Shown piece after piece: positions 25,638 through 26,066 of a stretch of DNA of 26,066 nucleotides. This DNA is from Escherichia coli (lineage in GTDB: Bacteria; Pseudomonadota; Gammaproteobacteria; Enterobacterales; Enterobacteriaceae), in NCBI RefSeq assembly GCF_003334255.1, contig NZ_QOWU01000064.1; one strand, 5' to 3'. A program made the translations under genes and the position numbers. The notes beneath the pieces are model-generated. The model had not been told where the DNA came from. It worked only from the letters and a program-made list of their open reading frames with translations, and ran no database searches. Every line of letters starts with the position of its first letter. The stretch's first letter is position 1.

Positions 25638-25877
25638 GCCATTATGTCTCCTGCCGTAATCCGATGCTTTTGTCGGTCGCTTTTGTTTATTTTTTTTGGT
25701 AAAGGAAATGTTATGCATTTGTTGCATATCATTATGCAACCTTAACCATGAATTTAGTTAGCAGGAAAATGGTTATTGAGGAGCTTAAGGATAAATTTCT
25801 GGTAAGGAGGACACGTATGGAAGTGGGCAAGTTGGGGAAGCCGTATCCGTTGCTGAATCTGGCATATGTGGGAGTAT

Positions 25878-25902
25878 AAGACGCGCAGCGTCGCATCAGG
25901 CA
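25878..25902 (-). repeat. REP-like element (minus-strand GCCTGATGCGACGCTGCGCGTC...) between kgtP promoter region and rrn terminator
   Basis: Minus-strand sequence matches the REP consensus start GCCTGATGCGACGC. Confidence 0.6.
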
Positions 25903-25918
25903 TTTTTTTCTGCGCCAA

Positions 25919-25949
25919 TGCAAAAAGGCCATCCGTCAGGATGGCCTTT
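25919..25949 (-). terminator. rRNA operon intrinsic terminator (T1-like hairpin AAAGGCCATCC / GGATGGCCTTT)
   Basis: 11-bp stem with 4-nt loop, starting 12 nt past the 5S 3' end on the minus strand; the A-run at 25919-25925 gives a U-tract. Confidence 0.8.
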
Positions 25950-25960
25950 CGCATAATTTG

Positions 25961-26066
25961 ATGCCTGGCAGTTCCCTACTCTCGCATGGGGAGACCCCAC
26001 ACTACCATCGGCGCTACGGCGTTTCACTTCTGAGTTCGGCATGGGGTCAGGTGGGACCACCGCGCT
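25961..26066 (-). rRNA. rrfG: 5S ribosomal RNA, 3' portion (truncated by window end; ~106 of ~120 nt)
   Basis: Minus strand reads ...AGCGCGGTGGTCCCACCTGACCCCATGCCGAACTCAGAAGTGAAACGCCGTAGCGCCGATGGTAGTGTGGGGTCTCCCCATGCGAGAGTAGGGAACTGCCAGGCAT, the canonical E. coli 5S 3' end. Assignment to rrnG rests only on synteny with kgtP. Confidence 0.9.

Follow-up and report, generated by a model that had tools for sequence, protein, structure and literature searches.

Does transcription of a ribosomal RNA operon reach the alpha-ketoglutarate transporter gene kgtP? The question is raised by the right-hand end of a 26,066-nt stretch of Escherichia coli DNA (contig NZ_QOWU01000064.1 of assembly GCF_003334255.1; hereafter the window), in which a 5S rRNA gene at the very edge is followed, on the same strand, by kgtP. 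A sequence-only reading of the window had proposed that rrn read-through would run into the kgtP promoter region and gene. The analysis described here leads us to read the region as the distal end of the E. coli rrnG operon together with the intergenic space before kgtP, with kgtP insulated from the operon and expressed alone, a reading to which we assign a probability of about 0.93. The genes, the type of terminator, and the promoter at the rrnG/kgtP boundary are all annotated or published and are in that sense already known. The features on which the argument depends are as follows, in the order in which a polymerase leaving rrnG would encounter them.

25961–26066, minus strand: rrfG, the 5S rRNA gene of rrnG (Rfam RF00001; identity with K-12 rrfG, b2588)
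25917–25954, minus strand: the single intrinsic terminator of rrnG, of "T2 type" (fold; comparison with rrnB and rrnA T2)
25902–25923, minus strand: spacer GCATTGGCGCAGAAAAAAAT between terminator and REP, identical to the spacer after rrnA T2
25876–25901, minus strand: truncated REP remnant, GCCTGATGCGACGCTGCGCGTCTTAT (homology to the rrnA REP; REP core motif)
25817–25879, plus strand: yfiS (b4783), encoding the 20-aa small protein MEVGKLGKPYPLLNLAYVGV (K-12 annotation at the homologous position)
25702–25739, minus strand: kgtP core promoter (placed from PMC8317463)
25638–25701, minus strand: kgtP 5′ UTR, about 65 nt, C/A-rich, with the ribosome-binding site GGAG before the ATG (sequence, and the transcription start of PMC8317463)
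24339–25637, minus strand: kgtP, alpha-ketoglutarate:H+ symporter, 432 aa (open reading frame list; K-12 b2587; RefSeq annotation in all listed matches)

The Window Ends Inside the 5S rRNA Gene of rrnG

The earlier claim that the window ends inside a minus-strand 5S rRNA gene is borne out by an Rfam RF00001 match at 25963–26066 (minus strand; 72.2 bits versus a gathering score of 38), with an E value of 1.1e-13 when the entire window is searched and 2.3e-15 for the local stretch. Rfam marks this match as truncated 5′ by the window edge, which falls at position 13 of the model. Identity with K-12 rrfG puts the mature 3′ end of the gene at 25961; the window contains the 3′-terminal 106 of 120 nt, which match b2588 throughout, and the 5′ 14 nt, which would begin 5′-TGCCTGGCGGCCGT..., would lie past 26066. 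A permissive Rfam search of the region returned nothing besides the 5S gene and a sub-threshold match to RNAI on the terminator hairpin (22.8 bits versus a threshold of 47, E = 0.057), which we discounted as a fortuitous resemblance between hairpins.

The window is E. coli DNA with 99.977% identity to K-12 MG1655 over 25,989 nt (alignment of 78–26066), the differences amounting to five mismatches and one 1-nt indel. The part of rrnG away from kgtP was read from K-12 and from strain 720632 (99.93–99.95% identical to the window), not from the window itself. In both genomes, a full-length rrf is followed by the 23S, tRNA-Glu, and 16S genes and then by clpB, and the rRNA genes of both loci are all on the kgtP strand. 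The annotated order in K-12 is kgtP–yfiS–rrfG–rrlG–gltW–rrsG–clpB, and strain 720632, which is 99.95% identical to the window over 9.5 kb, has the same gene order. Which rrn operon this is, a point that the sequence-only reading had referred to flanking synteny, is thereby settled as rrnG: kgtP lies downstream (in the window), clpB lies upstream, and the 16S–23S spacer carries a tRNA-Glu gene, gltW (in K-12 and 720632). These identities, coordinates, and gene orders are direct observations. A 467-nt query (25600–26066) is covered to at least 80% in 4,745 of 5,426 complete E. coli genomes, with annotated rrf and kgtP among the matches listed.

At the other side of the boundary, translation of kgtP begins at the ATG at 25637. 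A 466-aa kgtP reading frame from a TTG at 25739 was rejected, because the annotated start is this ATG (432 aa) and because the transcription start (~25702) is also downstream of the TTG.

A Single T2-Type Terminator Follows the 5S Gene

The core of the terminator is the stem-loop AAAGGCCATCC-TGAC-GGATGGCCTTT at 25949–25924 (minus strand), which starts 12 nt after the mature 5S 3′ end and runs into the tail TTTTTGCA. An 11-bp stem with six G-C pairs in its 8-bp core, a 4-nt loop, and a UUUUU tail give it the form of an intrinsic terminator, and the A-rich 5′ flank lets the stem extend, which results in a shape like that of a bidirectional terminator. The calculated folding energy is −18.1 kcal/mol for the stem-loop alone and −24.1 kcal/mol when it is extended with the A-rich and U-rich flanks, as compared with −22.7 kcal/mol for rrnB T2. 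For a 116-nt region around the hairpin, the folding z-score is −4.4, with no equally stable fold among 200 shuffles. The hairpin previously proposed at 25919–25949 is thus confirmed, that range representing the stem plus the U-tract.

Comparison with rrnB T2, the second terminator of the T1/T2 pair found in many expression vectors, accounts for the designation of this terminator. The stem-loop GGCCATCC-TGAC-GGATGGCC, the TTTTTGC tail, and the preceding ...CTGCCAGGCATCAAATTA context of rrnB T2 are identical to those of the rrnG hairpin, and GGCCATCCTGACGGATGGCC plus TTTTTGC is identical in the rrnG hairpin, rrnB T2, and rrnA T2. The rrnG and rrnB T2 sequences differ in the distal tail after TTTTTGC, which reads GTTTCT in the former against ATTGGC in the latter (ATTGGCGC against GTTTCTAC). 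A single terminator is found in four of the seven rrn operons (PMC8144298). As cited in that paper, rrnB T2 terminates ~100% of transcripts and T1 terminates 87% (Orosz 1991). From the literature and the sequence identity we infer that transcripts would end at the rrnG hairpin with T2-like efficiency; no measurement of termination at rrnG was found in the literature searched.

A consensus promoter and terminator scan of 25400–26066 flagged neither the rrnG terminator nor the kgtP promoter, and the same was true of the K-12 homologue. It listed just two weak hairpins and, inside kgtP, one promoter-like site, each on the plus strand and in numbers no better than with shuffles. The terminator was missed because the maximal-stem rule absorbs three U residues of the U-tract, and the kgtP promoter was missed because its −35 element matches at just three of six positions. 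The scan is uninformative here and provides no evidence of absence.

rrnG Lacks the T1 Terminator and sRNA Relic Found in Other rrn Operons

The distal ends of all seven K-12 rrn operons were extracted and compared, and the homology among them is observed directly. In rrnB, rrnA, and rrnD, the 5S gene is followed by T1, a ~130-nt relic, and then T2, and the relics between T1 and T2 have been published as the sRNAs RrB, RrA, and RrF (PMC8144298). In rrnG, the 5S gene leads directly to the T2-type hairpin, with neither T1 nor an sRNA relic, such that the dual-terminator arrangement is absent. The CTGCCAGGCATCAAATTA that precedes the hairpin is the end of the relic in rrnB and rrnA and the end of a real 5S gene in rrnG. 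The single- and dual-terminator forms are related by an indel of ~140–170 nt, flanked by the direct repeat ATTTGATGCCTGGCAGTT. In one complete genome, that of E. coli strain T2, T1, the relic, and T2 are present at rrnG, beside kgtP.

The closest counterpart of the rrnG end is that of rrnA, which is collinear and nearly identical from T2 through the spacer GCATTGGCGCAGAAAAAAAT into the REP, although rrnA has T1 and the sRNA and rrnG is without both.

The REP Element Is a Remnant

Beyond the spacer, the sequence-only reading had noted a REP-like element at 25878–25902. The label is right, as the element is homologous to the REP of rrnA, but what remains at rrnG is merely a remnant and not an intact REP. 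Relative to the rrnA REP, GCCGGATGCGACGCTGGCGCGTCTTATCCAGCCTAC, which is complete, the rrnG element has one substitution (T for G) and one 1-nt deletion (one G fewer in the loop), and it breaks off after ...CGTCTTAT. Its conserved 5′ arm and loop (GCCKGATGCGRCG...) match the consensus core of the REP/BIME family, GCCKGATGCGRCGY...CGTCTTAT; it is without the 3′ closing arm (ATC-AGGCCTAC) that belongs to the complete imperfect palindrome of ~35 nt, and it is a single copy with no BIME pair. Only a 6-bp top stem folds (−8.1 kcal/mol). Two copies of the REP core GCCKGATGCGRCGY are present in the window, versus 0.19 expected. Position 25876 is where similarity between rrn operons ends and locus-specific sequence begins. 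Measured from the kgtP start, the REP remnant lies 239–264 nt upstream, the hairpin 287–312 nt upstream, and the 5S end 324 nt upstream, in agreement with the ~240–320 bp given earlier for the hairpin and REP.

The 5S match could be an orphan fragment or pseudogene and not the end of a complete operon, given that the window shows just 106 nt of it and cuts the match off at its end. That cut, however, coincides exactly with the end of the window, the visible part is identical to K-12 rrfG, and genomes that are 99.9% identical over the flank carry a complete rrf, 23S, tRNA-Glu, and 16S; with a complete 5S gene on the rightward continuation in two near-identical genomes, the pseudogene alternative is extremely unlikely. 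The REP-like element could likewise be a chance GC-rich palindrome unrelated to REPs, a notion to which the missing 3′ closing arm, the lack of a repeat annotation in the K-12 record, and the presence of just one full-length copy in the window would lend themselves. Against this stand the identity of 25 of 26 aligned positions to the complete REP after rrnA T2, the identity of the preceding 22 nt to rrnA, and the complete REPs at the same place in E. coli HSP60 and at other Escherichia and Pseudocitrobacter rrn ends, which together make a chance origin extremely improbable. By sequence comparison, the rrnG element is homologous to a bona fide REP, and the operon beyond it is rrnG.

The Small Protein Gene yfiS Lies Between the REP Remnant and kgtP

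The interval between the REP remnant and kgtP holds yfiS, which was missed by the sequence-only reading. The gene is convergent with rrnG and divergent from kgtP, has a Shine-Dalgarno sequence, AAGGAGG, at 25804–25810, 6 nt upstream of its ATG, and has its stop codon inside the REP remnant. The 20 residues of YfiS are identical to those of K-12 b4783, and yfiS is among the small ORFs validated by western blot (PMC8921622). A 43-aa ORF at 25748–25879 represents an extended yfiS frame and was discarded in favor of the annotated start, the internal ATG at 25817 with its strong Shine-Dalgarno sequence. Given its symmetry, the rrnG hairpin may double as the terminator of yfiS. The gene varies within E. 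coli, where variants include MEVGNLGKPYSLLNLAYVGG and a 17-aa form; no conserved counterpart was found in Escherichia whittamii or the other genera compared, in which the region aligns poorly.

kgtP Has Its Own Promoter, With a Rare −10 Allele in the Window

The position of the kgtP promoter in the window follows from the literature and sequence identity. By 5′-RACE of kgtP mRNA, an activating C-to-T change at −8 was located 73 nt upstream of the AUG (PMC8317463). The −8 base therefore corresponds to 25710 (25637 + 73; C on the minus strand), which places the −10 element, CATAAC, at 25715–25710, separated by an 18-nt spacer from the −35 element, TTGCAT, at 25739–25734, with transcription predicted to start at ~25702. 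In BL21(DE3), the C-to-T change converts the kgtP −10 to the Pribnow consensus and turns an "inactive" promoter active, raising chromosomal kgtP mRNA ~80-fold; with C at −8, this strain shows a lag of ~24 h on succinate or alpha-ketoglutarate (PMC8317463). The promoter is also reported to be regulated, with ArcA and FNR repressing kgtP by binding the promoter region, CRP activating it, and RpoS having a negative effect (PMC5318444), and kgtP is listed as a verified target of the GcvB R1 seed (PMC9299463).

Of the six positions at which the window departs from K-12 in 26 kb, three lie close together in the kgtP promoter and 5′ UTR, and these are the only differences within 25500–26066; the visible part of the 5S gene, the terminator, the spacer, the REP remnant, and yfiS are identical in MG1655. 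Two of the three fall in the −10 element, CATAAC in the window versus TATAAT in K-12 (25715 and 25710), and the third is an extra C in the 5′ UTR of the window (25698). The −10 hexamer is TATAAC in the five other E. coli genomes read, and the aligned hexamer is also TATAAC in E. whittamii and two Pseudocitrobacter loci. In a seeded 39-mer search of 5,426 complete genomes, TATAAC was found in at least 1,514, the K-12 allele TATAAT in at least 350 (mostly K-12 laboratory derivatives among the matches listed), and the window allele CATAAC in at least 9, all three counts being lower bounds because 28-nt seeding loses genomes with other nearby SNPs. CATAAC is a rare kgtP −10 allele and the sole mildly unusual point of the region. 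The T at −8 in K-12 is the same change as the adaptive BL21(DE3) mutation described in PMC8317463.

The rrn–kgtP Adjacency Extends Beyond E. coli

Related genomes were searched for a pattern in which the 3′ end of a 5S gene leads into the hairpin's 5′ arm, with the 3′ arm and tail not required. The pattern matched 26 loci in Enterobacter, Pseudocitrobacter, Erwinia, Tatumella, Pantoea, Chimaeribacter, and other Escherichia. All 26 have the TTTTTGC tail and 25 have the 3′ arm GGATGGCC, while the hairpin loop varies (GAAA, GCAG, GTAA, TCAC, and others). The succession of a 5S gene and GGCCATCC-N4-GGATGGCC-TTTTTGC is widespread in Enterobacterales, with an essentially invariant stem and tail, and a REP is often next; in several of the 26 loci, the REP after the hairpin is complete.

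At 5 of the 26 loci, kgtP lies just downstream (75–99% protein identity), these being in E. whittamii, two Pseudocitrobacter, one Erwinia metagenome-assembled genome, and Chimaeribacter. Because kgtP is next in five loci across genera, the rrn–kgtP adjacency is old. Most draft assemblies break at rrn operons, and adjacency is not scorable in them.

Within E. coli, the identity of the matches to the 467-nt query ranges from 99.8% down to ~93%, and coverage of the query is below 80% in 681 genomes. In two such low-coverage genomes that were examined, the alignment stops near the end of yfiS and the REP, and an insertion sequence follows: an IS110-family element at the yfiS end/REP boundary in strain A26 and an IS3-family element there in strain YL3. 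In strain HSP60, the rrfG–kgtP spacer contains a complete REP and ~40 extra nt.

Read-Through From rrnG Into kgtP Is Probably Negligible

With respect to the proposed read-through, the geometry stands, in that rrnG and kgtP are on the same strand and the terminator lies 180 nt upstream of the kgtP −35 element; the transcription itself is probably negligible. A polymerase transcribing the 16S, tRNA-Glu, 23S, and 5S genes on the minus strand would meet one strong intrinsic terminator, and this terminator, 12 nt past the 5S 3′ end, would release nearly all rrnG transcripts. To the left of 25876 it would be followed only by locus-specific sequence, namely yfiS, kgtP's own promoter, and a 5′ UTR reported as a GcvB target, and kgtP would be insulated from rrnG and expressed from its own promoter. 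Read-through is unlikely to matter because the hairpin, loop, and proximal U-tract are identical to those of the ~100% efficient rrnB T2, because kgtP is served by a mapped, regulated promoter of its own (PMC5318444), and because one −10 base alters chromosomal kgtP mRNA ~80-fold (PMC8317463).

The alternative is functional read-through, in which some of the very heavy transcription of rrnG escapes termination, crosses yfiS in the antisense direction, and enters kgtP. It would give growth-rate-coupled kgtP expression or interference at the kgtP promoter, and it would matter most where the −10 element is poor, as with the CATAAC of the window, which is without both T−12 and T−7. That a single terminator with no T1 back-up separates two genes on the same strand, and that the adjacency has been kept from Escherichia to Erwinia and Chimaeribacter, would fit such coupling. 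Antitermination complexes of rrn operons, however, mainly suppress Rho-dependent terminators and not intrinsic ones, and the hairpin and proximal U-tract are identical to those of rrnB T2, for which 100% efficiency is reported as cited in PMC8144298. In BL21(DE3), kgtP mRNA is ~80-fold lower than in the T mutant and growth lags by ~24 h (PMC8317463); any read-through in this strain must therefore be insufficient, assuming that BL21 has the same terminator. No study of rrnG read-through into kgtP, and no paper linking rrnG transcription to kgtP, was found in the literature searched; one study uses sites around rrnG, just for supercoiling reporters (PMC4992867). We consider functional read-through very improbable, and there is similarly little to recommend the narrower proposal that the scant kgtP transcription of CATAAC strains comes largely from leakage through the single rrnG terminator. 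If such leakage did take place, alpha-ketoglutarate uptake and antisense silencing of yfiS would be tied to the rate of rRNA synthesis, and the rrn–kgtP adjacency across Enterobacterales would be kept by selection and not by inertia. Insulation of kgtP from rrnG is the reading that we retain.

Other Features of the Window

Three structured RNAs score above their Rfam thresholds elsewhere in the window and are as expected for a K-12-like region.

411–487: OhsC sRNA
3900–4114: rncO leader of rnc
6897–7728: AsrC, antisense to rseC

An Rfam match to ES036 (CssrF sRNA) at 14195–14237 (minus strand; 49.9 bits) adjoins a REP core, GCCGGATGCGGCGT, at 14258–14271, downstream of srmB, and this "sRNA" may be a REP-associated 3′ fragment. 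At the left end, positions 1–77 depart from K-12 and correspond to the terminus of an IS1 element, which joins the K-12-like sequence at 77/78 (K-12 position 2,700,187, inside the shoB toxin gene). This IS1–shoB junction was found as one contiguous match in none of the 5,426 complete genomes, the best matches having IS1 and shoB as two pieces with a different spacing.

Significance

The 3′ end of rrnG beside kgtP is a textbook feature, and its analysis matters little beyond providing a clean negative: the 5S gene is very unlikely to be a pseudogene, the operon is named, and the read-through coupling that had been hinted at is unlikely. The by-products, of local interest for kgtP regulation or rrn evolution, are the end point of the similarity between paralogous rrn operons, the CATAAC allele of the kgtP promoter, and the variability of the rrfG–kgtP spacer.
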